In this document: positions 39,067 through 53,381 of the stretch, one piece after another | Layout: the number at the start of each line of letters is the position of its first letter | How positions within the stretch are numbered: the first letter of the stretch is position 1 | Assembly (NCBI GenBank): GCA_964373255.1 | Contig: CAYJTG010000003.1 | Span: forward strand, 25,759-89,758 | Length of the DNA stretch: 64,000 nucleotides | Origin: an uncultured archaeon | GTDB lineage: Archaea; Aenigmatarchaeota; Aenigmatarchaeia; GW2011-AR5 | Direction: 5' to 3' | Position numbers and translations under genes: made by a program | Notes under the pieces: model-generated | What the model saw: the letters and a program-made list of their open reading frames with translations, nothing else | Told to the model about the DNA's origin: nothing | The model's database searches: none

Positions 39067-40008
39067 CTATACATTATTGCGCCAATATCCAAGCATATCT
39101 TTAAGTGTTTTGTCTATAGGTATAACAGGCGCCCATCCTATGGACTTGATTTTTGTGTTGTCACCGACAAATATCGGATCCTCCAGAATGCGCAATTTTT
39201 TCGGGTCCTTCTTCACCTTCACCCTCGCATCAGAAAATGAAACCAATTTATTTAGCAAATCTCCGACCTTGTATCTATTCCCTGTGCAAACATTGTAAAC
39301 GTCTCCAAATACGCCTTTCTTGGCAAGCAGCCATACGGCCTTTACAGCATCTCTTACATCGGTATAATCTCTTATACCTTCTAAATACCCGACGTCTGCT
39401 GCATTTCTTTTATTATTCTCTACCTCTGCAATCATCTTTGAAAAATCGGAGCATGCGTCATTGGTCTTTTTTGGCCCTGTTACATTGAAAAATCTGGCGC
39501 GAATTATTTTCATCTTGTACGCATGCCAGTAAAGATAAGCAAGCATATCAGTTCCTATTTTACTGACTGCGTAGGGGGAGGATGGCCTAAATTCTTTTGT
39601 TTCTTTGACTGGTATTTCATTTTCGTAATTGAGTCCATACTCTGCAGAAGAGCACGCAACGATTATTATTGGATTAATATTAGCCGCCCTGACAGCTTCA
39701 AGCAAATAAAGCGTGCCTATTATATTTGTTCTGAACGTATTTTCAGGATCCTTCCAAGATGGCATAACGAAGCTCTGCGCAGCTAGATGAAATATATAAT
39801 CGGGGGCAACCTTTTTGATTATTCTTTTCAACTTTTGTTTATCTGTTATATCGCAAACTTCAAGTTTCAGGTTTTTTTCAATATGTGATATGTTTTTTAT
39901 ATTTTCGTTTTTGTGAAGTATTCCATAAACTCCAATATTTTCTGATATAAGCAAATCAGCCAGGTGCGACCCTATAAACCCACCTATGCCAGTTATCAAT
40001 GCTTTCAT
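39067..40008 (-). CDS. NDP-sugar 4,6-dehydratase-family SDR. GDP-mannose / GDP-heptose 4,6-dehydratase-like.
   Basis: 'ALITGIGGFIGSHL', 'SSAEYG', 'SPYAVSKIGTDMLAYLY'. 313 aa. Confidence 0.6.
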   Translation of the reverse strand: MKALITGIGGFIGSHLADLLISENIGVYGILHKNENIKNISHIEKNLKLEVCDITDKQKLKRIIKKVAPDYIFHLAAQSFVMPSWKDPENTFRTNIIGTLYLLEAVRAANINPIIIVACSSAEYGLNYENEIPVKETKEFRPSSPYAVSKIGTDMLAYLYWHAYKMKIIRARFFNVTGPKKTNDACSDFSKMIAEVENNKRNAADVGYLEGIRDYTDVRDAVKAVWLLAKKGVFGDVYNVCTGNRYKVGDLLNKLVSFSDARVKVKKDPKKLRILEDPIFVGDNTKIKSIGWAPVIPIDKTLKDMLGYWRNNV

Positions 40009-41522
40009 TATTTCACTACCTTGAAAAGAAATTTTAATATCCTACCTGAAACCTTGATATTAATCTCGGACAACATTTTTATATCTGACTTTTTGACGAC
40101 TTTCGAAAGCAAGATAAAAACCAAATACACTGTAAAACCAATTATCAAGCTTATAATTGCCTCTAGAATTGATTCGGTAACCAGAGTATTTTTGACAAAA
40201 AATATTATTATAGTTGCTATAATGCCGCCTACGAAAACCTTTACCATTTCGGAAATGCTGAAACCTATTTTTATGTATTTCCCGAGAGATTTGTAGGACA
40301 TAGTTATCGCCAACAAATAAGAAATCATAGAGGATATCGCAGCGCCTATTATTCCTATCAAATTAATGAGCAACAAATTAAGTGTAAAATTTATAGCCGC
40401 AATGAAGATAATTATCCTCGTAGTTATTTCTGGTTTACCTATACCTAAAAGGCTTATGTACATTATAGAAAATATACTCTGAAATATAGCGCTTACAGTC
40501 AGTATTTGAAGCAAAGGTGCTGCATTTATATAAGATGGCCCAAACACGAGATTTAATGTAATCTCAGGAAATGTTATTAGTATTATTGCAAATGGTATAA
40601 TAAAAATAAATAAAAATTTAAGCAGCAATGAAATGCCAGAATCTAAAGCGTACCTTTTATCAGAGTTCCATATGGCAGAAACTGATGGAAGCAGAACTAT
40701 TCCTATAGCACTAGAAAACACAAGCAGAAATTGCGCAGTAGGCATAGCAACCTGGTAAAGCGCTACATCATTCAGAGAAAGGAAAAATGCTATCATAAGA
40801 CTGTCGATAGACGCTATTACTGTAGCCGCAAAAACTCCGGCAAATACGGTAAGGCTGAATTTCAATAGCTTTTTGGCTACGCGTGGTCGCACAGATTCTG
40901 TGTCATACGTCCTGTATCGTTTAAAAACGTAAAATACTAGAGCGGCATTTATTACAGCTCCAGAAATTAGATAGCTTAAAGCGACACCACTTGCTCCAAG
41001 AGAGAGAGAAAACGATAAAATAAGAAACCAAATAATTAAAAGTCTGACAGGTTCAATGAGTGCATATGATTTGATCTTATTCAAACCTTGAAGAACTGAT
41101 TTAAGGACGACAAATCCGATAAGAAATTCTATACTCATTATTTGTACAATTATTTTTGCTGATGCGTCATGAAAAAAATTTACAGCTATTATATCTGATA
41201 AAAAGAACAGCGTGACAGATATTATTAAACCTACAAAAAATTGCGAAATAAATGAATAATATATAATAGACTTTAGATTGGCGAATTCCTTTTTACTCTG
41301 AAATTCCGATATAAATTTGGTGACAGCTTGGCCAAGACCAAAATCCTTAAAGACCCCAAAAAAATATAAAAATGCTAGCACAGAATAGAACATACCAAAA
41401 TCTAAAACACTGAGGTTACGGGCAAGATATATTCTTAATCCATAACCTAGCAATGTCCCTGCTAGACCTATGATCAATACAGTAAATGTGCTTTTAGCAA
41501 TATGCTCTTTATAGTTTTCCAT
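40008..41522 (-). CDS. MOP-superfamily oligosaccharide flippase, Wzx-like.
   Basis: 504 aa. About 12-14 TM helices. The Wzx-typical N-terminus 'NYKEHIAKSTFTVLIIGLAGTLLGYGLRIYLAR'. Confidence 0.8.
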   Translation of the reverse strand: MENYKEHIAKSTFTVLIIGLAGTLLGYGLRIYLARNLSVLDFGMFYSVLAFLYFFGVFKDFGLGQAVTKFISEFQSKKEFANLKSIIYYSFISQFFVGLIISVTLFFLSDIIAVNFFHDASAKIIVQIMSIEFLIGFVVLKSVLQGLNKIKSYALIEPVRLLIIWFLILSFSLSLGASGVALSYLISGAVINAALVFYVFKRYRTYDTESVRPRVAKKLLKFSLTVFAGVFAATVIASIDSLMIAFFLSLNDVALYQVAMPTAQFLLVFSSAIGIVLLPSVSAIWNSDKRYALDSGISLLLKFLFIFIIPFAIILITFPEITLNLVFGPSYINAAPLLQILTVSAIFQSIFSIMYISLLGIGKPEITTRIIIFIAAINFTLNLLLINLIGIIGAAISSMISYLLAITMSYKSLGKYIKIGFSISEMVKVFVGGIIATIIIFFVKNTLVTESILEAIISLIIGFTVYLVFILLSKVVKKSDIKMLSEINIKVSGRILKFLFKVVK

Positions 41523-41736: not shown

Positions 41737-42831
41737 ATGCAAATATGCATGCTTTCAGAACTCTTCTATCCGTATATGCTTGGGGGTGCTGAAAGGCGAT
41801 ACTATGAGATAGCCAAAAGGCTTGCAAAACGCCATGAAATAACTGTATACGCGTTAAGATTGAGGGGGGTTCCTGATAAAGAAGTTATAGATGGTATAGA
41901 AATAAGAAGGCTTGGAATTTCTCATCCTCTCAATAGAAGGAGTTTCATGCCTCTGGCCAGCTATTTTCCTGCATTTCTCAAAGCTGTAAAAAATGAATAT
42001 GACGTTATAGACGTCAACCAAGGAATGGCTTCTTTTATGGGCATCGTGAAACCTATCATTAAAAAGCCGATGGTTGCGACATTTCATGATATTTATTGGA
42101 ATAAATGGAATCGTCATTTTGCTTTTCCGTATTCTAACATAGGTAAATTTATGGAATTCGTATGGTCTAAAACAAAATATACAAAAATAATAGCTAATTC
42201 ACCTGAAACAAAGGAAAAGCTAGAAAACTTAAAATTCAGATCGACAGTAGAGATGATACCAAGCGGCGTGGACATGCGGCTGATTAATAGTATAAATGGC
42301 AAAAAAGGGGGAAATACAGTCGTGTATGTCGGCAGGCTAGAGGGCTATAAAAATGTTGAGACTGTCCTACACGCTGTGGCAAAGGTAAGAGCAAAAATTC
42401 CAGATATAAAGCTAAATGTTGTTGGTTCGGGGCCGAAAGAAGCGGAACTCAAAAAATTAGCCAGTGATCTTTCAATAGATGCCGAATTCTTTGGATTTGT
42501 CGATGAAAAAAAGAAATTTGAAATTATCAAGTCTTCTGACGTACTGATAAATCCATCGTTTGTTGAAGGTCTCGGCCTGATTGTGTTGGAAGCCATGGCG
42601 TGCAAAGTGCCTGTTATAGCAAGGGATCTTAAATGTTACTTCTTTTGTAACGGCAAAAATTCTGTACGGTACACGAATAAAGAAAAACTCCCAGAACTTA
42701 TCGTAGACATCATCCAGAATAAAAACCGAAGAAATGCAATGGCTCGAAATGGTTACCAAACGGCAAAGCAATTTTCGTGGGATGAAACGACAAAAAAAAT
42801 AGAAAATCTCTACAAAAACTGCTTACACTAG
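41737..42831 (+). CDS. GT4-family glycosyltransferase.
   Basis: 'INPSFVEGLGLIVLEAMACKVPVIA'. Confidence 0.8.
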   Translation: MQICMLSELFYPYMLGGAERRYYEIAKRLAKRHEITVYALRLRGVPDKEVIDGIEIRRLGISHPLNRRSFMPLASYFPAFLKAVKNEYDVIDVNQGMASFMGIVKPIIKKPMVATFHDIYWNKWNRHFAFPYSNIGKFMEFVWSKTKYTKIIANSPETKEKLENLKFRSTVEMIPSGVDMRLINSINGKKGGNTVVYVGRLEGYKNVETVLHAVAKVRAKIPDIKLNVVGSGPKEAELKKLASDLSIDAEFFGFVDEKKKFEIIKSSDVLINPSFVEGLGLIVLEAMACKVPVIARDLKCYFFCNGKNSVRYTNKEKLPELIVDIIQNKNRRNAMARNGYQTAKQFSWDETTKKIENLYKNCLH

Positions 42832-42888: not shown

Positions 42889-43848
42889 ATGAAGAATGAA
42901 AAAATACTTATCACAGGCGGCGCCGGTTATTTAGGGTCGGTTTTAACAGAACACCTTGTCAATCTTGGCTATGACGTAGCAGTTTTAGATAATCTTATGT
43001 ACAACCAAAACTCACTCCTGCACCTGTTTCACAATAAAAACTTCCGGTTCATAAATGGTGATGTAAGGGACACGGAATTATTGAAAAAAATAGTCCCGAA
43101 TTTCGATTTTATTCTCCCTTTAGCAGCAATAGTTGGCGCAAACGCATCAGAACGCGATAAAGAACTTACCAAATCTGTTAATTATGAAGCAATTGCGTCC
43201 ATCAATAAAATAAGAGACCAGAAAAGACAGAAGATAATTTTTCCTACAACAAACAGCGGTTACGGAACTAAAAGCAGCGACATTTATTGTACAGAAGAAA
43301 CACCACTAGAACCTATATCGATTTATGGCACAACAAAGGTCGAGGCAGAGAGAGAGCTGTTGAAATCTAACAATACAATAACGCTTAGATTAGCCACATG
43401 CTTCGGGTTCTCGCTAAGAATGAGGATAGATCTCTTGGTAAATAACTTTGTATACAAAGCGATAAAAGACGGCTACATTGTACTATTCGAAAAGAACTTC
43501 AAAAGAGATTTTCTGCACGTTCGTGATGCTGCCAGATGTTTTGTTCATTGTATAGAGAATTTTGAATCGATGAAAAATGAACCCTATAACGTAGGCTTGG
43601 AAGATGCAAACCTGTCAAAAGAGGAACTATCACTAAAAATTAAAGACATACTAAAAAGTACTGCTCAAAAAGACCTTTACATACACGCGTCAGAAATAGG
43701 TAAAGACCCCGACAAAAGAAACTACATTATTTCAAACAAAAAAATAATGTCTGCTGGATTTAAGTGTAGATATTCTTTGGAAGACGGAATAGAAGAACTA
43801 ATAAAAGGGTATGAACAGCTTTTTGATAAACACTACACAAATTTTTGA
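42889..43848 (+). CDS. NAD-dependent NDP-sugar epimerase/reductase (SDR).
   Basis: 'ILITGGAGYLGSVL', 'YGTTKVEAE' (YxxxK). Confidence 0.68.
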   Translation: MKNEKILITGGAGYLGSVLTEHLVNLGYDVAVLDNLMYNQNSLLHLFHNKNFRFINGDVRDTELLKKIVPNFDFILPLAAIVGANASERDKELTKSVNYEAIASINKIRDQKRQKIIFPTTNSGYGTKSSDIYCTEETPLEPISIYGTTKVEAERELLKSNNTITLRLATCFGFSLRMRIDLLVNNFVYKAIKDGYIVLFEKNFKRDFLHVRDAARCFVHCIENFESMKNEPYNVGLEDANLSKEELSLKIKDILKSTAQKDLYIHASEIGKDPDKRNYIISNKKIMSAGFKCRYSLEDGIEELIKGYEQLFDKHYTNF

Positions 43849-43857
43849 GGCGATTTA

Positions 43858-44811
43858 ATGGCATTGAAGGCTAAAAAAATAGTTGTTGCTGGTGCTTCTG
43901 GATTTCTTGGGAGGAATTTTACACATTCTCTAACTAAAGCTGGGTATAAAAATGTCATTGTACTAAGCTCTAAGGATTACGACCTTACAGAGCAGATAAA
44001 AGTAAGGCAAATGTTTGCGGATTTGAAGCCTGAAATCATCATCAATCTTGCAGGGTACGTAGGTGGTATATTAGCAAACAAAACCTATCCTGCTGACTTC
44101 TGCTACAGGAACCTTATAATGAACGCAATGCTTCTTCATGAAGCTTATATAAATAATGTAGAAAAAATAATTTCGTGCATAGGTGGCTGCAGCTATCCGG
44201 CAAACGCACAAAGCCCTATAAAGGAGGAAAACCTGTGGGAAGGCTATCCGCAAAAAGAAAGCGGCCCGTACTCTGTGACAAAGCGCATGGTTGCTGAGCA
44301 GGGTAATTCATACAGGCAGCAGTACGGGCTGAACGCCGTTACTGTTGTTCCTGGCAACATGTACGGCCCGTACGATAATTTCTCACTGAACAATTCACAT
44401 GTTATTCCGGCGTTAATAAGAAAATTTTACGAGGCAAAGAAAGAACACAAAAACGAGGTAGTCGTATGGGGCAGTGGCAAACCTACAAGAGACTTTGTTT
44501 TTGTGGAAGACGTAGCAGAATGCCTTATAAAAGTCCTAGAGGATTATAACGGTCCGCAGATAATAAACATATCGTCCGGCACAGAAGTACCTATACGAGA
44601 ACTTGTAGAAACAATATCAGAACTTATCGGCTTTGATGGAAGTATAGTATGGGACTCGTCCAAACCTGACGGCCAGATGAGAAAAATATTTGACGTCACA
44701 AAAATGAAAAACATTCTTGACTTTGAATGCAGAACAGATCTAAGAACCGGCCTGAAAAAAACGATACAGTGGTTTGAAGAGAACTACGAAAAAGGTACTG
44801 TAAGATTGTGA
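43858..44811 (+). CDS. GDP-L-fucose synthase-like 3,5-epimerase/4-reductase (GMER/Fcl family). Alternatively a GDP-6-deoxy-heptose reductase.
   Basis: 'KIVVAGASGFLGRN', 'GNMYGPYDNFSLNNSHVIPALIRKFYEA', close to the Fcl signature 'NLYGPHDNF...SHVIPALLRRFHEA'. Confidence 0.75.
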   Translation: MALKAKKIVVAGASGFLGRNFTHSLTKAGYKNVIVLSSKDYDLTEQIKVRQMFADLKPEIIINLAGYVGGILANKTYPADFCYRNLIMNAMLLHEAYINNVEKIISCIGGCSYPANAQSPIKEENLWEGYPQKESGPYSVTKRMVAEQGNSYRQQYGLNAVTVVPGNMYGPYDNFSLNNSHVIPALIRKFYEAKKEHKNEVVVWGSGKPTRDFVFVEDVAECLIKVLEDYNGPQIINISSGTEVPIRELVETISELIGFDGSIVWDSSKPDGQMRKIFDVTKMKNILDFECRTDLRTGLKKTIQWFEENYEKGTVRL

Positions 44812-44907: not shown

Positions 44908-44931
44908 TCTTTACTTAGTTCTTTACTTAGT
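44908..44931. repeat. Perfect tandem duplication of a 12-nt unit (TCTTTACTTAGT, twice) across the stop codon of the 44923-45447 gene.
   Basis: Read directly from the sequence. Confidence 0.5.
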
Positions 44932-45447
44932 TAATTCTACGTGAAGCTCTTTTGCCGGAAATATCCACGCGAGTCCTGAATTTTCATAAAGCCACGGAAA
45001 CCTATTTGCTATAGGCGACATCCAAGAAAAAAATCTGCTGAACACAAGGTTTGTCGTAACTTCAGAAAAATGGAATTTGTAGTAGTAGCTCAGATTGTTG
45101 CCTGCCATAAATGGCGCAAAGCTCTCCTTTGTAAAATACCACTTGTGGTGCGGATGGTAGGCGCTCGGTATTGTGGCGTAAGGCACAACTATGTACGCCC
45201 TGCCGCTTTTTTTTAGCACCTTGTGTATTTCTGACATCGCCTTTTCAAAGTCTTTAACGTGCTCTATCGTGTGCTCTGTAAATATTTCATCTATACTGTT
45301 TTGTTTGAATTTTTCTGACAAATTACATACGTCCACAACAACGTCGGGCTTCACGGCCTTAGATATATCGCAGTTTACGTAGCCTTGTTTCCGTTTAGCG
45401 CCACAACCAATATAAAGTTTTGCCATAAAATCATTTTCCTCTTGCAA
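44923..45447 (-). CDS. Small SAM-dependent methyltransferase-like protein.
   Basis: 'LYIGCGAKRKQGYVNCD' and 'IFTEHTIEHV', resembling the Methyltransf_11 family. 174 aa. Confidence 0.5.
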   Translation of the reverse strand: MQEENDFMAKLYIGCGAKRKQGYVNCDISKAVKPDVVVDVCNLSEKFKQNSIDEIFTEHTIEHVKDFEKAMSEIHKVLKKSGRAYIVVPYATIPSAYHPHHKWYFTKESFAPFMAGNNLSYYYKFHFSEVTTNLVFSRFFSWMSPIANRFPWLYENSGLAWIFPAKELHVELTK

Positions 45448-46189
45448 AATCGAAAACGGTCTTTTGTGTCTTCTCGATACTACAGATCTTTTTTATTTTC
45501 GATACGTTGACATTGTACGCCTCTTTCTTCAGTTTGTAAAGATTTTTATCAAGGCGTACTCCAACAAATTTAGCCGCCTCCTCTAACTTGATTGTTCCGT
45601 CACCGCAGATATTGAATATTTCATTTTTTTGGTTTCTTATCTGATAAATTATTCTAGCAACACCAGACGTGTTTATGTACTGGTATTCGGATCTTGGGCT
45701 GACAAACAACGTGCCTTTTGTCATAAGGTCGAATATGGCGTTCTTCTTCAGGCCTTCCCCAACCATACCACCGAGTCTTGTTATCAGCCAGTCGTTTGTG
45801 TATTTTTTGACGATCTGTTCGCACAGCCACTTGCCGAACCCGTAATTGCTGAGCTTCTCAGGCGTAATCTTTGCGTCTTCTCTGTTCCTTTTTGTGTCTG
45901 AAACGTCATTATAGACGTCTATAGACGATATCAGTATGTATTTCTTGAATCTGAAATCCACAACTGTATTCAATACCGACAATACATTGAGTTCAAAATC
46001 TTTTTTTGGGTCCTCCGCGGCCAGCCTCTTCTTTGAAGAACCGCCTGCGTTTATAAATATATCACAGTTGCTGCCAACAAAGTCTGTATAATTATCCCTG
46101 TCTATACCAGCAAAATCTATTCGTTTTGACTGAAGATATTTTCCTATTGCTGATCCAACAAATCCCTTATACCCAAGCAAGTATATCAT
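45431..46189 (-). CDS. Short NAD(P)-binding Rossmann protein. dTDP-4-dehydrorhamnose reductase / epimerase-like.
   Basis: 'IYLLGYKGFVGSAI' glycine-rich N-terminus. 252 aa. Confidence 0.45.
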   Translation of the reverse strand: MIYLLGYKGFVGSAIGKYLQSKRIDFAGIDRDNYTDFVGSNCDIFINAGGSSKKRLAAEDPKKDFELNVLSVLNTVVDFRFKKYILISSIDVYNDVSDTKRNREDAKITPEKLSNYGFGKWLCEQIVKKYTNDWLITRLGGMVGEGLKKNAIFDLMTKGTLFVSPRSEYQYINTSGVARIIYQIRNQKNEIFNICGDGTIKLEEAAKFVGVRLDKNLYKLKKEAYNVNVSKIKKICSIEKTQKTVFDFARGK

Positions 46190-47151
46190 TTGATATCAGC
46201 CTTCCTGAACTTTATGTATCCTTTTGTGAAATAATAAAACCTTGACAGTGGTATAATCCATATGAAAATCAATAGTTTTAACTTTTCACCAATTGATCCG
46301 TCTTTATCTTCGACTAGTTTTCTACCAGCAATTATCAAATATATTAAAACTATGAATATTGCTGCTGTGGCATAAAATGCCGCCGAATAAAGAAACGCTA
46401 AAAGCAGGAAAGGCGAAAAGACACTTGGCCATATAGTTGCTGGCATGCCATTTTTATAAAAATATTTTTTGTACAATTTGGCGTGCTTTCTTATGAGCAG
46501 ACCATCATAGAGGAATGTCCGCTGGTTTTTAATCCTGTAAAACACAGAAACTTTTTTTGAAATATGTGTCATCCTTGCTTTTTCACAATACACCATTTTG
46601 TAGCCGCTTTCTATAACACTCCACGCGAGGTCTGTATCTTCTCTGGCTATTTTAAACCTTTTGTCAAATCCGCCGATTTTTTTTATTATGCTCATCCTGT
46701 AGGCGCTGTTATGCCCTATGAACTGCAAATAATCGTTTTCCATGTGGTACCAGAAAAGCCCTTTTTTATCAGCGGCAGTCCGTCCTATAACTCCGCCAAC
46801 GGATTTGTCTGAAAACGGCTTTACAATCTCTTCCATCCAGTTTTTTTCGACGATGCAGTCGGAATCTACAAAAATAACTATTTCGCCCTTTGCCATATCG
46901 ATGCCTGTATTTCTTGCGGCGTTTCTTCCTGGTGTTTTATCGACAAGAATTTTCAGCCTCTTGCTCTTCTTTGCGTATGCGTTCAGCATTTCAAGCGTCC
47001 CGTCTGTTGAGCCGCCATCAACGGCAACAATCTCGTAATTCTTGTAGTCAGACCTGAGCATTGCATCAATGGTTTTTTTCATGAGGTCTTTTCTATTATA
47101 AACAGAAATGACAACAGAAACTGATAATTCTTTCATTTTAATCGCCTTCAA
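46186..47151 (-). CDS. GT2-family glycosyltransferase with C-terminal TM helices.
   Basis: 'VSVVISVYNR', 'VDGGSTDGT', 'VDSDC'. Confidence 0.8.
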   Translation of the reverse strand: MKAIKMKELSVSVVISVYNRKDLMKKTIDAMLRSDYKNYEIVAVDGGSTDGTLEMLNAYAKKSKRLKILVDKTPGRNAARNTGIDMAKGEIVIFVDSDCIVEKNWMEEIVKPFSDKSVGGVIGRTAADKKGLFWYHMENDYLQFIGHNSAYRMSIIKKIGGFDKRFKIAREDTDLAWSVIESGYKMVYCEKARMTHISKKVSVFYRIKNQRTFLYDGLLIRKHAKLYKKYFYKNGMPATIWPSVFSPFLLLAFLYSAAFYATAAIFIVLIYLIIAGRKLVEDKDGSIGEKLKLLIFIWIIPLSRFYYFTKGYIKFRKADIK

Positions 47152-47182: not shown

Positions 47183-48361
47183 TTAGACTGTCTCGTTGAA
47201 CCGTACCCTGAAAAGCTTGACCTCTCCGCCCCAGCTATTTACGAATTCGAAACTGTTTAGACCTACGCCGTTGAACAGAAACATCCTTGTAAACAGCGCA
47301 TTTTCCAGTTCTGGTGTCATAAAGAGGAGTGTTTGCCTTGAACCGTCTAACCATAAGGTCCCCTTGACCTCTGCCGCTGCGTCGTTATACAAATTGAATG
47401 CACCCTGACGGTCGAAGTACCATAATTTCTCTACGCGAAGAAGGTTGTTTTGCTGCTGCAGAAAAGGCCTGAGCGTGCCATTTGTCTCGTACAAAACAAA
47501 CGCGCTGTCTTGTGCAACCCTGTAATAGAATGCTATAGCGTTCTGGTCTAAAACAGGTCGCGCGGATTCTAGCGGTATTATGACGTAGTTGTGCCGCTGC
47601 CCATAGTTCGGCGCATTTGTCGGGTTCCACGTGGCGAAATAAGTCCACCACTGGCTTTTACCTATAAGATCCGAGGACGCGATATAGTAGAGTTCATCGC
47701 AGTCGGGCTTTTTATAATCTTTCAGAATTTTCACAGCTAACGTCTCGTTGCCTGTGAACAGTGTTGTTCCGATGTCCTGTATTCGTGCCCTTGTAACAGT
47801 TCCGTCTTTATAAAACAATACGCGGTTTATGCCGTGGTCTTGCTGCTCAATAACGATCCCGGTTTTTGTTTCGTCGGTTGGCAATGTTATAGTAGAACCC
47901 TGAGATGCTCCATCAAATACAATAGCACGCCGAGCTATGCCAGTTATAAAATGCCCTGGGTCCCAGTACGTTGCGATGACGGCGCATTCCTTTGTATTGT
48001 TCTTTATCCAGTTAAGTGCCTCCCACCAGTTGTCCGAAAGCACGGTACCAGAACACTCTGAGATTCTTAGACTATCGAGGTAATAGACATTCACAAAAAA
48101 TATGAATATTATAACCAAGAGAACGAATGAAAACAGTTCTCTGTTATTTATCCTTTTGCCAAAACGTGCACCTATGGCTATAAGAAATATAACAGCGGCA
48201 CCTATATAGAGCTGTAATGAATATCCGTCAATCCAGTCCTGGGACGTCATGGAACCACAGGTTGTTTGTACGCCACTAAAGAGAATCAACAGCACATATA
48301 TGATTACTATACTGATGATGCCTGCAGTAAATTTATTCGCGTTTATGTCCATGCTAATCAC
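47183..48361 (-). CDS. aglB: C-terminal part of AglB/STT3 oligosaccharyltransferase. Three TM helices followed by a periplasmic catalytic domain with a WWDYG-type motif.
   Basis: 'TYWDPGHFITGIARRAIVFDGAS' lies immediately after the third TM helix, as the WWDYG block does in STT3/PglB/AglB. The reading frame is offset from the upstream TM ORF. Confidence 0.55.
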   Translation of the reverse strand: MISMDINANKFTAGIISIVIIYVLLILFSGVQTTCGSMTSQDWIDGYSLQLYIGAAVIFLIAIGARFGKRINNRELFSFVLLVIIFIFFVNVYYLDSLRISECSGTVLSDNWWEALNWIKNNTKECAVIATYWDPGHFITGIARRAIVFDGASQGSTITLPTDETKTGIVIEQQDHGINRVLFYKDGTVTRARIQDIGTTLFTGNETLAVKILKDYKKPDCDELYYIASSDLIGKSQWWTYFATWNPTNAPNYGQRHNYVIIPLESARPVLDQNAIAFYYRVAQDSAFVLYETNGTLRPFLQQQNNLLRVEKLWYFDRQGAFNLYNDAAAEVKGTLWLDGSRQTLLFMTPELENALFTRMFLFNGVGLNSFEFVNSWGGEVKLFRVRFNETV

Positions 48362-49541
48362 TCATGTTCTTATCCTCACCGCTAGCCAAACGGAACAATT
48401 TAGAAAATAAAATTCCTGCAGCTATAGCTACCGGGGCTGAAAACAGTATTGTAAATCTTATAGCAACAAGTGTTGCCAAGAATGGGCCAACAAACCATAT
48501 GGCGAGCAAAATAATTGTGTCAAGGTGCTGCCTCTTTTTTATAAACGAAAATAATAGGTAGATAATACAGAATATCATGAGGAAAAATGGCGAGCCTATG
48601 CGGTTTATTATTTCCTTGGCGTCAGAAGGGTTCTGAAGCTCAGCGACAGACACATAAACATTCGGGAAGGTTCTTGCTTCGCTTTTGATTTCCGGAAACT
48701 GGATTGGTCCTGTTATCGTGGAAACGATAGGGTTGACGCCGAAAACCGGAACGGTAAAGGCGAAGAACAGCAAAATAATTATGACATAAGAAAATATCGG
48801 AGACCTATAATTGTGTAATGTTTGCCTTGCATTTTTTGTTTTTATGAAACTTGTAACGATCTTTAGAAACACAAATCCTGTTATCAGCCAAACAACAAAC
48901 CAGAATCCGCTCCATGTATAGTACCACGCTGTAAGTGCTAAGCCGGCTGCAATTGAAAGTACGATTGTTTTCTTTCGAAATCCTTGTTCCAACGATATTT
49001 TATGCGCTACAACAAAAAGTGCCATGACAACTAGAGGCATCAGAAGGACTATTCCGTCGCTGTCCGGGTCGCCGCCAAGCGTTCGCGCTATAATCGATGC
49101 GTCAAACATGATAAATGCCGCTGCCAGCACACCCGCCTTCCTGTCGTACAGTGTTTTGGCCAAAAAATACATTGGTATAGCCATCAGGGCAGCAAGAAAT
49201 GCTGGAAACCATATAAGAAACTGAAATAGTGACGTGCCTTGCGAAAATATATGGTAAAACATATATGCGTATGCGCTGAAATAGACGTAGAAATCTTGGC
49301 TTATAACTCTGTCAACACCAAAAGGCGCCTGCGCAAGTTCATTTCTTGCTGGAAGTGCTCCACCGTTGTTAACTATATCTTCTATATCTCTGGCAAAATT
49401 GTACGAGTCAATATTTCTGAGGTAAGGCCACCTGTAATCTATAAGTCTTATATACATCCCAAGAATCATGATTACAACAAGAGCTATGATCACCCAGCGT
49501 TTACTCAGAAATGCCAACAACGTGTTCTTGTTTATTAACAT
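48354..49541 (-). CDS. aglB: N-terminal membrane domain of AglB/STT3 oligosaccharyltransferase (about 10 TM helices).
   Basis: 395-aa polytopic ORF with first-loop acidic motifs ('RNIDSYNFARDIEDIV', 'GGDPDSDG'). It ends in a TAG that overlaps the start of the downstream catalytic-domain ORF by 8 nt in another frame. Confidence 0.5.
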   Translation of the reverse strand: MLINKNTLLAFLSKRWVIIALVVIMILGMYIRLIDYRWPYLRNIDSYNFARDIEDIVNNGGALPARNELAQAPFGVDRVISQDFYVYFSAYAYMFYHIFSQGTSLFQFLIWFPAFLAALMAIPMYFLAKTLYDRKAGVLAAAFIMFDASIIARTLGGDPDSDGIVLLMPLVVMALFVVAHKISLEQGFRKKTIVLSIAAGLALTAWYYTWSGFWFVVWLITGFVFLKIVTSFIKTKNARQTLHNYRSPIFSYVIIILLFFAFTVPVFGVNPIVSTITGPIQFPEIKSEARTFPNVYVSVAELQNPSDAKEIINRIGSPFFLMIFCIIYLLFSFIKKRQHLDTIILLAIWFVGPFLATLVAIRFTILFSAPVAIAAGILFSKLFRLASGEDKNMSD

Positions 49542-49716: not shown

Positions 49717-50829
49717 TTATTTGCCAATAATTCTTGTTATCTTTGGCAAAAGAAACCGTGCAAGTTTGAATTTCGGGAGTTTTTTCCATTCGTCGCTGAG
49801 CTTGTCGTAATCAAAGCCGTCGAGCATGGACAGGACGTAACCAAAATCTTTGAACATCCCATCGATTTCTTTGTTTGTCAGTTTTCTGTATATCATTCTC
49901 AGCATATACTGCTTCTCTATTTCCCATGCTATATCCTTTTTCCACATTTTTTCATAGCTGCTGAGAAAATGTTTGCTGAACGTACCTTCTTTCAGCGCGC
50001 TGTTTATTACATCAGCGGCGTGCTGCGCCGCCATCATCGAGTACATTATTCCGCCTCCAGTCAGCGGCTTATTCTGGCCGCACGCGTCGCCTATCAGGAG
50101 CGCGTTGTTCTCGTAGCTTTTTGTGTAAGTGTACGGTATCATGTAGGCGTACATCTTACCCGGTGGCAGGTACGTTTTCTTGACAAAATAGTCAAAGTAA
50201 TCTTTTGGCCGTACGCACGTCATTATTCCGTACTCGTTGTTTTGCGGTATAATCCAAGAAAAGAAATCCGGCGAGAAATATTTGTTGAAAAATACGCTTA
50301 TGTCGCCTTCCATTTTTTGCCGTGTCTTCACCATTATACCCAGCGCGACTTTTGGATTTTCTATATTCATTGCACGCCTTACAACAGAATTAGTGCCGTC
50401 ACACCCGACGACAATTTTTGCCCTGTATTCTTCGTCTTTTGTCTTAACGACCGCACAGTTTTCAGCAAACTTGACCGATTCGACGGTTTCATAAGAAATG
50501 TCTGCATTTTTCCTTGCGTTTTTTCTAAGAGACCTGCCGAACATTTTCCTTCTGAGTATGTATGCGTAAGGCTCGTCTGACTGAAGGGAAAACGTGTGCC
50601 CGGAAGGCGATACGCATTCCATTTTGTTTATTCTGAATTTTACAAGCTTTTTGGCAGAACCACCAAAAATGTTGTCGAACCTTGTAGAAACTATGCCGCT
50701 GTCCTTTGGAATTACTTTTCTGTTTTGCTCCAAAATAAGCACGCTATACTTTGGGTTTATCCTTGACGCCAGGTAGCTTCCAGCGATACCGGCACCGGCA
50801 ATAACAACGTCGTACATGACAACACTCAT
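49717..50829 (-). CDS. FAD-dependent geranylgeranyl reductase family protein. Candidate polyprenol / dolichol reductase.
   Basis: 'YDVVIAGAGIAGSYLA' FAD-binding site. 370 aa. GGR/FixC-like. Confidence 0.72.
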   Translation of the reverse strand: MSVVMYDVVIAGAGIAGSYLASRINPKYSVLILEQNRKVIPKDSGIVSTRFDNIFGGSAKKLVKFRINKMECVSPSGHTFSLQSDEPYAYILRRKMFGRSLRKNARKNADISYETVESVKFAENCAVVKTKDEEYRAKIVVGCDGTNSVVRRAMNIENPKVALGIMVKTRQKMEGDISVFFNKYFSPDFFSWIIPQNNEYGIMTCVRPKDYFDYFVKKTYLPPGKMYAYMIPYTYTKSYENNALLIGDACGQNKPLTGGGIMYSMMAAQHAADVINSALKEGTFSKHFLSSYEKMWKKDIAWEIEKQYMLRMIYRKLTNKEIDGMFKDFGYVLSMLDGFDYDKLSDEWKKLPKFKLARFLLPKITRIIGK

Positions 50830-50919: not shown

Positions 50920-51768
50920 ATGTATATGTTCACCGACAAGCACTGGAAAGCATTCATGTGGATAACAATAGTGTTCCTTATCTTTTCTGTTGCGCTGCTG
51001 GCAAACAACATAATAACAACGGGTTCTTTTCTGGAAAGGGATATAGACCTGAGCGGTGGAAAGTTAATAACGGTCGAGGTGAAAGATGCTGACATAGGTA
51101 AAATAAAATCTGCAGTTCCGTATGCAAATGTTCGCCTAACGTCAGGCGCGACAAGGTTCCTGCTTGTGGAAATGCCTTTTGGTGCCGATGAAAATGACGT
51201 GCTCGAACAGATAAGAAATATTGCTGTCCTGCAGGGTGAGCCTAGCATACGCATCGTAGGTCCTTCAATCGGCAACATTTTTTTTCAGCAAGCACAGACG
51301 GCTATGATCGCTGCATTTGTGCTGATGGCGATTACGGTTTTCATGCTCTTCAGGGCAGTAGTTCCGTCGTTGATCGTGCTTTTTGCCGCACTGACAGATA
51401 TTCTGGGCACGATGGCTGTACTTTCTATAATAGATATGCCGTTGTCATTGCCCGTGATAGGTGCGCTACTTGCCTTGATAGGTTATTCTGTCAGCACCGA
51501 CATACTGCTGACAACAGAACTGCTAAAAAGCGGCAGAACCGACTATTCTAAAAGCATAAGAAAAGCTGCGAAAACCGGGATAACCTTAACCGGGACTGCG
51601 CTGATAGCTTTGGTGTGTATGTTCTTCCTAGCTGGTTCGACTGTGATACAGCAGATTGCCCTTGTAATGCTCATAGGCCTGGTAATAGACATGCCTGCTA
51701 CGTGGTTCACGAATGCCGGTGTGCTTCGGTTGTGGATAGAGAGAAAGCAAAGGGGTGCTCAGCGATGA
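50920..51768 (+). CDS. secF: Protein-export membrane protein SecF.
   Basis: 282 aa. Six TM helices and a periplasmic loop. Overlaps the secD start (ATGA). Confidence 0.82.
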   Translation: MYMFTDKHWKAFMWITIVFLIFSVALLANNIITTGSFLERDIDLSGGKLITVEVKDADIGKIKSAVPYANVRLTSGATRFLLVEMPFGADENDVLEQIRNIAVLQGEPSIRIVGPSIGNIFFQQAQTAMIAAFVLMAITVFMLFRAVVPSLIVLFAALTDILGTMAVLSIIDMPLSLPVIGALLALIGYSVSTDILLTTELLKSGRTDYSKSIRKAAKTGITLTGTALIALVCMFFLAGSTVIQQIALVMLIGLVIDMPATWFTNAGVLRLWIERKQRGAQR

Positions 51769-53381
51769 ATACGTTTTTGAAAAATCCTAGAGTGCTCATA
51801 TGGATTTTTTTCATAGTTGTTTCTATAATTGTTATAGCGCCAAATCCAAATCCACATGGTTTTGTTGTTGTCTCCGTCAACAGAACAATAGTCAACAATA
51901 TTGATCTTGGAGAAGTGATTTACACAGTAGACGACAAACCTGCAACAGCCGACATGTTTAACGATAATTATTTTGGTATAGTCAAAATTGGCACGGGCAA
52001 AGGAATAAAGTATGTGAATCTAAACGGTACGCTCGGCATCGGTGCAAACAGCGTGCCTTCTACAAATATAAGGTTCGGGCTTGACATAAAAGGTGGTGTC
52101 CGTGCCATCCTCGAGCCCAACGTTTCTACAAACGCAACTTTAGATCAGGTAATATCCACGCTTGAGGAGAGAATCAACTTCTATGGTCTGCGCGAGTCTG
52201 TCTTCAAACCGATTTATTACGAGGGTAAAGGCTTCATAGAAGTAAACATAGCAGGCGGCACAAAAGAGGAACTCAAAAATCTTATAGAGAGTCAGGGAAA
52301 CTTCGAGGCCAGGATACCGTTTACCGTATCTGTAACGGGCAACCAATTCGCGCTGAAACTGGACAAAAATTATGCAGTGCCTGTAGAAAATTCTTCCATA
52401 GTTATCGACGGCAAAAATGTACATACCGGCGAGCCGTTTTATTTGTCGGGCATTGATTTCATGCTCAACGACATAAATTCCGGCCGCGTTAACATCACCG
52501 CAAAAGTCTTTGGTGGTGATGACGTAGTCACAGTATTTCTAGATCCGCAGAGAACAAGAATAGAAAAGCTGGCAGACGGCTACAGCTGGACGTTCTCAGT
52601 TCAGCTGAGCAAAACAGGCGCGCAGAAATTTGCATACGTCACAAACAATATCAACCAGCTCGCCACAGGATACCTGGAATCGCCGATAGTCTTTTACCTG
52701 GACGGTAATTTAGTAGATTCTCTCAACATAGCATCATCTCTTAAAGGCAGAACAGAAACAGAGATCGCAATTAGCGGCGGCGCCGACACACAAAAAGAAT
52801 CCTCCCGTGAGATGGTACAGCTGCAGTCGATACTGCGATCGGGCGCGCTCCCGACTACCGTTGAGATTGTCCAGCTTGACACTGTTTCTCCAACCCTTGG
52901 CGCAGGGTTCCTGAAGAGTGCTATCTTTGCTGCGCTTGCTGCGCTGCTTGGCGTCATTATTTTTGTATCGCTGCGGTACAGAAAGCCAAAGCTGGTCGTA
53001 CCGATGATTTTTATATCAATAACAGAAATACTTATTGTCATTGGCGTGTCGACCATTATTGGATGGACGGTTGACCTAGCCGCTATAGCAGGCATAATCG
53101 CGTCAGTCGGCACAGGCATAAGCGACCAGATAATAATTCTTGACCGCGCATTAAGAAAAGAGGGGGAATACGAAGAAACGCTTCATGAAAAAATAAAGAA
53201 GGCGTTCTTTGTCGTTTTCGGCACAGCCGGCACTGTTATTGCGGCGATGCTGCCGCTTATGTTTATCGGCTTCGGGCTGCTGCGCGGCTTCGCACTCATA
53301 ACGATAATAGGCGTGCTTGTAGGAATCCTGGTAACGCGCCCTACCTACGGCGTTATTATTGAACGCCTCATGAAGGAATAG
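51765..53381 (+). CDS. secD: Protein-export membrane protein SecD.
   Basis: Start taken at the Met of MNTFLKNPRV, overlapping the secF stop. Large periplasmic domain followed by a C-terminal six-TM bundle. Confidence 0.82.
   Translation: MNTFLKNPRVLIWIFFIVVSIIVIAPNPNPHGFVVVSVNRTIVNNIDLGEVIYTVDDKPATADMFNDNYFGIVKIGTGKGIKYVNLNGTLGIGANSVPSTNIRFGLDIKGGVRAILEPNVSTNATLDQVISTLEERINFYGLRESVFKPIYYEGKGFIEVNIAGGTKEELKNLIESQGNFEARIPFTVSVTGNQFALKLDKNYAVPVENSSIVIDGKNVHTGEPFYLSGIDFMLNDINSGRVNITAKVFGGDDVVTVFLDPQRTRIEKLADGYSWTFSVQLSKTGAQKFAYVTNNINQLATGYLESPIVFYLDGNLVDSLNIASSLKGRTETEIAISGGADTQKESSREMVQLQSILRSGALPTTVEIVQLDTVSPTLGAGFLKSAIFAALAALLGVIIFVSLRYRKPKLVVPMIFISITEILIVIGVSTIIGWTVDLAAIAGIIASVGTGISDQIIILDRALRKEGEYEETLHEKIKKAFFVVFGTAGTVIAAMLPLMFIGFGLLRGFALITIIGVLVGILVTRPTYGVIIERLMKE

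Follow-up and report, generated by a model that had tools for sequence, protein, structure and literature searches.

Oligosaccharyltransferases (OSTs) of the AglB/STT3/PglB family transfer a lipid-linked glycan to the asparagine of N-X-S/T sequons. Reviews and phylogenomic papers describe AglB, PglB and STT3 as single polypeptides that combine a catalytic membrane domain with a sequon-binding domain. A division of a glycosylation enzyme between genes is known from Alg13/Alg14 (EpsF/EpsE), which, set against the fused Agl24/MurG-type glycosyltransferases, has been read as the product of one fission followed by multiple re-fusions (PMC8993221). Here we describe a pair of adjacent genes, aglB-N and aglB-C, in a 64-kb stretch of DNA from an uncultured aenigmarchaeon (contig CAYJTG010000003.1; hereafter the window). 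We conclude, with a probability of about 0.85, that the pair encodes an intact AglB OST as two adjacent, separately translated genes, reflecting an old fission inherited across a large clade of the Aenigmarchaeota (DPANN).

Homology, predicted fold and sequence motifs place the pair in the AglB/STT3/PglB family (GT-C fold, CAZy GT66). Foldseek comparisons indicate that both parts share the fold of Archaeoglobus fulgidus AglB-L (3WAJ/3WAK/7E9S), PglB (3RCE/5OGL/6GXC) and STT3, and the pair also has the Pfam STT3 domain, the acidic motifs, an SV(A)E sequence in the EL5 loop, the conserved arginine of transmembrane helix 11 (TM11), a WWDYG-type motif and a location among glycosyltransferases, sugar epimerases and a flippase. 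Unlike those single-chain enzymes, it consists of two genes, cut between TM12 and TM13, in place of a single polypeptide; this is a difference between the systems, rather than a ground for excluding homology. It further differs in the change of WWDYG to YWDPGH, in having two extra TM helices before TM13, and in a C-terminal half that stays below significance in Pfam-A and NCBIfam. The closest full-length relatives are fused AglBs from Aenigmarchaeota and Undinarchaeota (P0265, P0293, P0390 and P0275; 700-840 aa, 27-36% identity), which are collinear with aglB-N followed by aglB-C and have a WWDPGH-type motif in common, but are single open reading frames (ORFs) without the signature GEDKxxxD, followed by M, that marks the split junction. 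The likeness to Alg13/Alg14 is that an enzyme of the same pathway occurs as one polypeptide or as two adjacent genes depending on the lineage, a pattern we likewise infer for AglB. However, Alg13/Alg14 belongs to another fold, GT-B, is soluble or peripherally anchored and catalyses another reaction, whereas the cut in AglB lies inside a polytopic GT-C helix bundle. No description of a split AglB or STT3 was found in the full-text literature searched, nor any mention in a 2024 review of archaeal N-glycosylation or in phylogenomic papers on the pathway (including PMC8993221), although one is possible in the main pan-archaeal AglB survey, Nikolayev et al. 2020, which lay outside this search.

Both ORFs lie on the minus strand (Table 1, in window numbering). 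A reading made from the sequence alone had proposed that AglB is divided over 395-aa and 392-aa ORFs that overlap in different frames and together amount to about 787 aa. The ORF listing returns exactly these two, adding the strand, which had not been stated, and the Pfam, profile and structure matches set out below agree with the identification. On the minus strand the junction reads ...GGTGAGGATAAGAAC ATG AGT GAT TAG C ATG GAC..., or over a longer span ...GGT GAG GAT AAG AAC ATG AGT GAT TAG C ATG GAC ATA..., with aglB-N stopping at the TAG at 48356-48354. There are two candidate starts for aglB-C. The GTG at 48361-48359 gives an 8-nt overlap with aglB-N and a 392-aa product, while the ATG at 48352-48350 begins 1 nt past the stop and gives 389 aa; the latter is the start picked by gene callers for an identical database protein (P0001, 389 aa). 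Among 45 loci compared in their junction DNA, L067 and L060, the two closest relatives with this region, carry an ATG where the GTG stands in the window, so aglB-C could use either start. In the frame of aglB-C, a TGA at 48364-48362 lies directly 5' of the GTG, and hence any single indel joining the two frames would be confined to the 5 nt at 48361-48357. A second, separate assembly (Logan, ERR4904392) contains the same gene pair, encoding proteins of 395 and 389 aa identical to those of the window.

The split is a property of the lineage. The best 120 database matches inspected for each half were all stand-alone halves (386-519 aa for aglB-N and 296-488 aa for aglB-C), overwhelmingly from metagenome-assembled genomes (MAGs) of Aenigmarchaeota, and often with consecutive locus tags. 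A scan of relatives using one genome per GTDB species yielded 65 loci, nearly all aenigmarchaeal, with the junction visible in 60. The gene is split at 57 of these and a single ORF at three, and in every case the N-half directly precedes a C-half of the same orientation. When 39 concatenated split pairs were aligned with two fused forms using MAFFT, the junction fell in one alignment column in 37 pairs; the exceptions are L030, offset by three residues, and L037, in which the offset comes from a mis-chosen start. N-halves end in a conserved tail, F-S-K-L-x-R-M-x-T-G-E-D-K-x-x-x-[D/E], and C-halves open with methionine. The distance from the N-half stop to the nearest ATG in the C-half frame is between -14 and +16 nt at 46 loci, and 33-172 nt at eight. 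The relative frame offsets of the halves are distributed 34/14/9, and all three stop codons occur. At four loci (L013, L034, L042 and L066) the halves are in the same frame, parted only by TAA then ATG, such that one point mutation would re-fuse them. In one sub-lineage (L017, L018 and L057), a complete gene of about 220 codons, occupying about 650 nt and encoding an S-adenosylmethionine (SAM)-dependent methyltransferase (PF08241, E 2e-21), lies between the halves. In database annotation, NCBI calls several C-halves "hypothetical protein" and lists some N-halves as "STT3 domain-containing protein", at JGI the two halves are filed under different OST-related names, and almost all C-halves are without a precomputed Pfam domain.

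Both halves have evolved under purifying selection. In each of the six pairs in which dS was not saturated, Nei-Gojobori estimates of dN/dS were 0.03-0.28 for both halves. L067, which is 70% identical to the window and fully syntenic with it, gave a pN of 0.19 and a pS of about 0.8 in this comparison, with synonymous sites saturated. The distance matrices of the N-halves and C-halves were correlated at r = 0.87, with none of 999 permutations as high. The motifs for catalysis and sequon recognition show no variation in the 57 N-halves and 60 C-halves aligned.

The upstream half, aglB-N, matches Pfam STT3 (PF02516) over profile positions 7-369 of 405 (E 2e-27, 97 bits against a cutoff of 24.5) and, partially, the NCBIfam archaeo_STT3 profile (positions 1-261 of 831). 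AlphaFold2, given an alignment of 57 sequences, models it with 12 TM helices (pLDDT 88.2, pTM 0.88); the sole disordered, low-pLDDT stretch, residues 287-302, corresponds to the EL5 loop, as expected because this loop is flexible. Foldseek returned 19 matches in the PDB at E <= 0.001, comprising A. fulgidus AglB (7e9s, 3wak), yeast and human STT3, and PglB, the best of them at E 4e-9 to 1e-5 with TMq 0.6-0.7. Together with PF02516, these matches identify aglB-N as an STT3-type membrane domain, rather than the unrelated permease that the sequence-only reading had held out as the alternative identity of the upstream ORF. Four conserved elements of the putative active site can be located within it (Table 1). 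We take D45, by inspection, to be the counterpart of the FDPYFNY aspartate of eukaryotic STT3. The second acidic motif is placed by phmmer, which aligns GGDPDSDGIV of aglB-N with GSYDNEGIA of human STT3A, setting DPDSD on YDNE. PNVYVSVAELQ, assigned by inspection, is a predicted EL5 motif of the SVSE/TIXE type with the catalytic glutamate, its invariant residues being P293, N294, V295, S298, V299, E301 and Q303. The fourth is the arginine of TM11, which is also conserved in all fused outgroups. Some N-halves reach 463-468 aa through an N-terminal extension of about 65 aa (e.g. GW2011_AR5).

The downstream half, aglB-C, has no significant match in Pfam-A or NCBIfam. Nevertheless, an hmmsearch with a profile of 17 homologues matched it to residues 473-553 of human STT3A (E 4e-7), setting its ATYWDPGHFITG...VFDGAS block on the WWDYGY...LVDNNT block of that protein; the ATYWDPGHFITGIARRAVVFDGASQ block is aligned in the same match. 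The AlphaFold model (pLDDT 93.6) has the three TM helices that the sequence-only reading had counted, followed by an alpha/beta globular domain. Alignment with fused and split forms indicates that only the third helix is TM13 of fused AglB, the first two being lineage-specific. The best Foldseek matches were PglB (6gxc/5ogl/3rce), the C-terminal domain of Campylobacter jejuni PglB (3aag) and soluble domains of Pyrococcus AglB; hence the comparison with solved structures that had been called for assigns aglB-N to the membrane part, and aglB-C to the C-terminal part, of AglB/PglB/STT3. The YWDPGH sequence is a variant of WWDYG at positions 1 and 4. A conserved helix, R190-I-Q-D-I-G-T-T-L-F, in which I191, D193, I194 and L198 either do not vary or are conserved to at least 90%, is a candidate for the MI-like IxxIxxxL motif of the Ser/Thr pocket. 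The original description of the pair as a TM ORF and a catalytic-domain ORF is therefore right in its division into two parts, but misplaces catalysis, as the catalytic acidic residues and EL5 sit in aglB-N. With the active-site motifs shared out over the halves, aglB-N is itself the likely catalytic core and aglB-C a sequon-recognition module with the last TM helix. Judged by these motifs, which cooperate in solved OSTs and are here divided between the two proteins, catalysis is predicted to need both.

The position of the cut can be defined structurally. In the aglB-N protein, one more helix, TM12, comes after the conserved A-x-R-F helix before the chain ends, and at this site fused relatives have a short K/R-rich loop, a single helix (TM13) and then GTVLSDNWW...WWDPGH. 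Hence the cut falls inside the TM12-TM13 loop, which should be cytoplasmic given the known topology of the family (N-terminus inside, C-terminal domain outside). The 12 helices of aglB-N, TM13 and the two additional helices sum to 15 in the window's lineage, compared with 13 in the family; as this is an odd number, the predicted topology, with the C-terminal domain outside, is kept. The number of extra helices in the C-halves differs by lineage, being zero, two, or four or more (L052, L020 and L014 are other examples). C-halves with TM13 only, such as those of L008 and L017, measure about 305-320 aa. Two extra helices precede TM13 in the window, L067, L002 and L003, and the loop that joins these two contains a conserved TTC(G/A/N) motif; the 468-aa C-half of L048 has four or more. 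The extra helices occur in pairs, preserving the topology.

A purine-rich stretch, GGTGAGGA, resembling a Shine-Dalgarno (SD) sequence, lies in the conserved G-E-D-K codons of aglB-N, 11 nt before the GTG at 48361 and 20 nt before the ATG at 48352. The codons of this tail read GGnGAGGAyAAr, 11-20 nt before the C-half start. The tail glutamate codon is GAG in 19 of 27 loci, against a share of 46.5% in the remainder of these genes (binomial p 0.011), and of the eight GAA cases six belong to loci with a distance of 33 nt or more to the C-half start (Fisher p 6e-4); as both tests ignore shared ancestry, the SD interpretation is only suggestive. The sub-lineage comprising L017, L018 and L057 uses GAA, not GAG, for this residue.

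The identity of the halves, the conserved split and its position, their status as separate genes, purifying selection and the conserved motifs are direct observations, and a mechanism can be proposed around them. The two genes would be co-transcribed, and ribosomes would begin aglB-C, through coupling or re-initiation, at a start that overlaps or abuts the aglB-N stop, probably aided by the GGnGAGGA stretch in the last aglB-N codons. The two membrane proteins would form a heterodimer with the architecture of single-chain AglB/PglB/STT3, in which TM13 and the extra helices pack on the aglB-N bundle, and the globular domain sits on EL1/EL5, recreating a single active site. Within this complex, aglB-N would supply Arg362 and the acidic residues for metal binding and catalysis, namely D45, D160/D162 and E301 (in EL5); the acidic residues and E301 would activate the asparagine and bind the metal and the lipid-linked glycan, and the YWDPGH motif of aglB-C would bind the +2 Ser/Thr of the sequon.

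Of the four explanations offered by the sequence-only reading, the functional two-piece enzyme is the one upheld, by the conserved split, purifying selection and invariant motifs; comparative sequence data exclude the pseudogene, the sequencing error and programmed frameshifting. Were the window considered alone, its two frames overlapping by 8 nt would resemble a single gene broken by a 1-nt indel, whether through recent mutation or a sequencing or assembly error, and outside this clade a fused AglB is the rule. However, the relatives, where that reading had proposed looking for an intact gene, have the same cut in 57 of 60 species-level loci, down to 27-40% identity, with low dN/dS in both halves and invariant motifs; moreover, the C-frame TGA leaves only 5 nt for the indel, and the second assembly encodes the same two proteins. 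We consider a recent frameshift or an error extremely improbable. Production of one polypeptide by programmed frameshifting or stop read-through would fit the adjoining or overlapping stop and start of most genomes, and in particular the four loci where the halves are in frame. Yet there is no fixed frame relation, no conserved slippery sequence, spacers of up to 172 nt occur, and almost all C-halves carry an ATG of their own where the alignment of the half begins; in the window itself, the AGTGAT between the C-frame TGA and the N-frame TAG is without a slippery heptamer. Furthermore, the methyltransferase gene in L017, L018 and L057 means that neither frameshifting nor read-through could join the halves in those genomes, making this explanation very unlikely.

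The least improbable rival is that the halves have diverged, with aglB-N becoming a lone GT-C glycosyltransferase and aglB-C, for example, an independent membrane-anchored binding protein, such that there is no joint OST. That the genes are separate, and separable by another gene, and that the C-halves have gained variable numbers of TM helices, are in its favour. We nevertheless regard it as unlikely, as the halves are adjacent, co-oriented and co-inherited in all 60 loci, their distances correlate, both retain motifs that cooperate at one OST active site (the EL5 glutamate and acidic residues in the N-half and the WWDYG-type motif in the C-half), and several lineages appear to have re-fused them. 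To our knowledge, isolated C-terminal domains of AglB and PglB have been crystallised only as soluble domains without activity. Other points weigh against two separately translated genes encoding an intact OST: the start codon of aglB-C may be either GTG 48361 or ATG 48352; the SD interpretation is suggestive, being based on a codon-bias statistic uncorrected for phylogeny; co-transcription, translational coupling, physical assembly and activity are all steps that we infer; and other Aenigmarchaeota have fused AglBs, while the search for a paralogue spanned the 64-kb window. A split intein or trans-splicing was also considered and rejected, as the junction (...GEDKNMSD / MDINANK...) contains no blocks of intein type, and set against fused homologues the halves are contiguous.

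The history of the split was approached through an exhaustive HMMER search with the C-half over 1.8 billion representatives, which recovered 816 relatives. The best of these, about 24 with E < 1e-46, were stand-alone C-halves or fragments of 167-435 aa; below about 1e-42, matches of 700-1200 aa appeared and soon dominated, being full-length AglB/STT3 proteins matched in their C-terminal third and collinear with the N-half then the C-half, the nearest of them named as Aenigmarchaeota and Undinarchaeota. Neighbour-joining (NJ) trees, which are distance-based and were bootstrapped 100 times, have weakly supported internal nodes, but placed every split form of the YWDPGH type in one clade with 100% support, alongside five fused forms (L010, L044, L054, P0265 and P0395), with the fused outgroups outside. 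One of these nested single ORFs, L010, keeps a ...SEDKSVGD-M-K... relic of the stop/start junction, which suggests secondary re-fusion. The most parsimonious account of these sequences is one fission, followed by several re-fusions through stop-codon loss. As internal nodes are weak, the number of events is uncertain, with the count of re-fusions and the placement of L069 tentative, and fused calls in single MAGs could be assembly artefacts. L069, a more distant split AglB that is also cut after TM12, with an 8-nt overlap (ATGAGTGA), is placed by the tree, with low support, beyond the main split clade; the fission therefore either predates that clade or occurred twice at the same structural site.

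A broader conjecture, which we think doubtful, is that the TM12-TM13 loop is a natural hinge that has been repeatedly cut and re-joined, through the old YWDPGH fission, a possibly independent one in L069, and four or five re-fusions, with the C-subunit and its zero, two, or four or more added TM helices serving as an exchangeable sequon-recognition module. If this were true, the stoichiometry or identity of the C-subunit could vary independently of the membrane core, and this two-subunit OST of a prokaryote would have properties not available to single-chain enzymes.

The pair lies within a glycosylation cluster that is conserved in L067 (Table 1). Directly upstream of aglB-N, and syntenic in L067 and L068, is a gene for an FAD-dependent reductase; this enzyme may be the polyprenol/dolichol reductase that acts on the lipid carrier. 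The methyltransferase ORF of the window may be truncated or rearranged; the syntenic relative L067 encodes a methyltransferase of 282 aa, in a different order relative to the epimerase. A tblastn search with the two halves and six fused relatives found no second STT3 homologue in the 64-kb window, returning only the known locus. Across the same window, whose GC content is 40.2%, there are no tRNA genes (ARAGORN) and no Rfam families at the gathering threshold.

Table 1. Coordinates of the split aglB genes, their motifs, related loci and neighbouring genes. Positions are in window numbering unless prefixed by a locus.
Feature	Position	Strand	Description
aglB-N	48354..49541	minus	395 aa, ATG start; STT3/AglB membrane domain, TM1-TM12 of GT-C fold
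aglB-C	47183..48361	minus	392 aa from GTG 48361 or 389 aa from ATG 48352; different frame from aglB-N
aglB-N/aglB-C junction	48350..48365	minus	TGA, GTG, TAG and ATG all inside
Purine-rich SD-like stretch	48373..48380	minus	GGTGAGGA, in the conserved G-E-D-K codons of aglB-N
D45 in LRNIDSYN	49407..49409	minus	EL1 acidic residue; invariant in 57 N-halves
D158-P-D-S-D162	49056..49070	minus	Second acidic motif (DXD/DNE-type); D158, P159, D160 and D162 invariant in 57 N-halves
P293-NVYVSVAELQ-303	48633..48665	minus	EL5 motif with E301; 7/11 positions invariant in 57 N-halves
R362 in AIRF	48456..48458	minus	TM11 conserved Arg; R362 and F363 invariant, and shared by every fused outgroup
Three TM helices of aglB-C	48053..48334	minus	Residues 7-28, 38-64 and 70-100 in the AlphaFold model
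W130-D-P-G-H134 (preceded by Y129)	47951..47965	minus	WWDYG equivalent; invariant in 60 C-halves; aligned on STT3A WWDYG
Interposed methyltransferase gene	L017:2120-2782; L018:3335-3991; L057 ~650 nt		One sub-lineage
Single-ORF AglBs nested in split clade	L010:3-1661; L044:2402-4927; L054:2864-5038; P0265; P0395		
L069 split AglB	L069:1596-3936		Aenigmarchaeota HY051 MAG; 36% identity, WWDQGH, 470 + 311 aa
Polysacc_synt flippase	40008-41522		
GT4	41737-42831		
NAD epimerases/dehydratases	42889-44811 and 45431-46189		
Methyltransferase ORF	44923-45447	minus	174 aa; matches only Methyltransf_11 profile positions 41-95 (C-terminal part)
GT2	46186-47151		
FAD-dependent reductase	49717-50829	minus	Geranylgeranyl-reductase/lycopene-cyclase type; Pfam Lycopene_cycl / FAD_binding_3 matches
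SecF/SecD	50920-53381		Divergently transcribed

A split that is conserved and under selection implies that two membrane proteins, with the break between TM12 and TM13, can make up this enzyme; the loop there is thus a place where splitting is tolerated, of use in engineering and in structural studies of the C-terminal module. Genome surveys that look for N-glycosylation in DPANN archaea with length or domain filters could misread such genomes as having a truncated or missing AglB, because the C-half has no significant Pfam or NCBIfam match and is often labelled "hypothetical". As the evidence supports a two-piece enzyme, the surrounding glycosylation island is most likely active, and the window's glycosylation gene cluster should be read as such.

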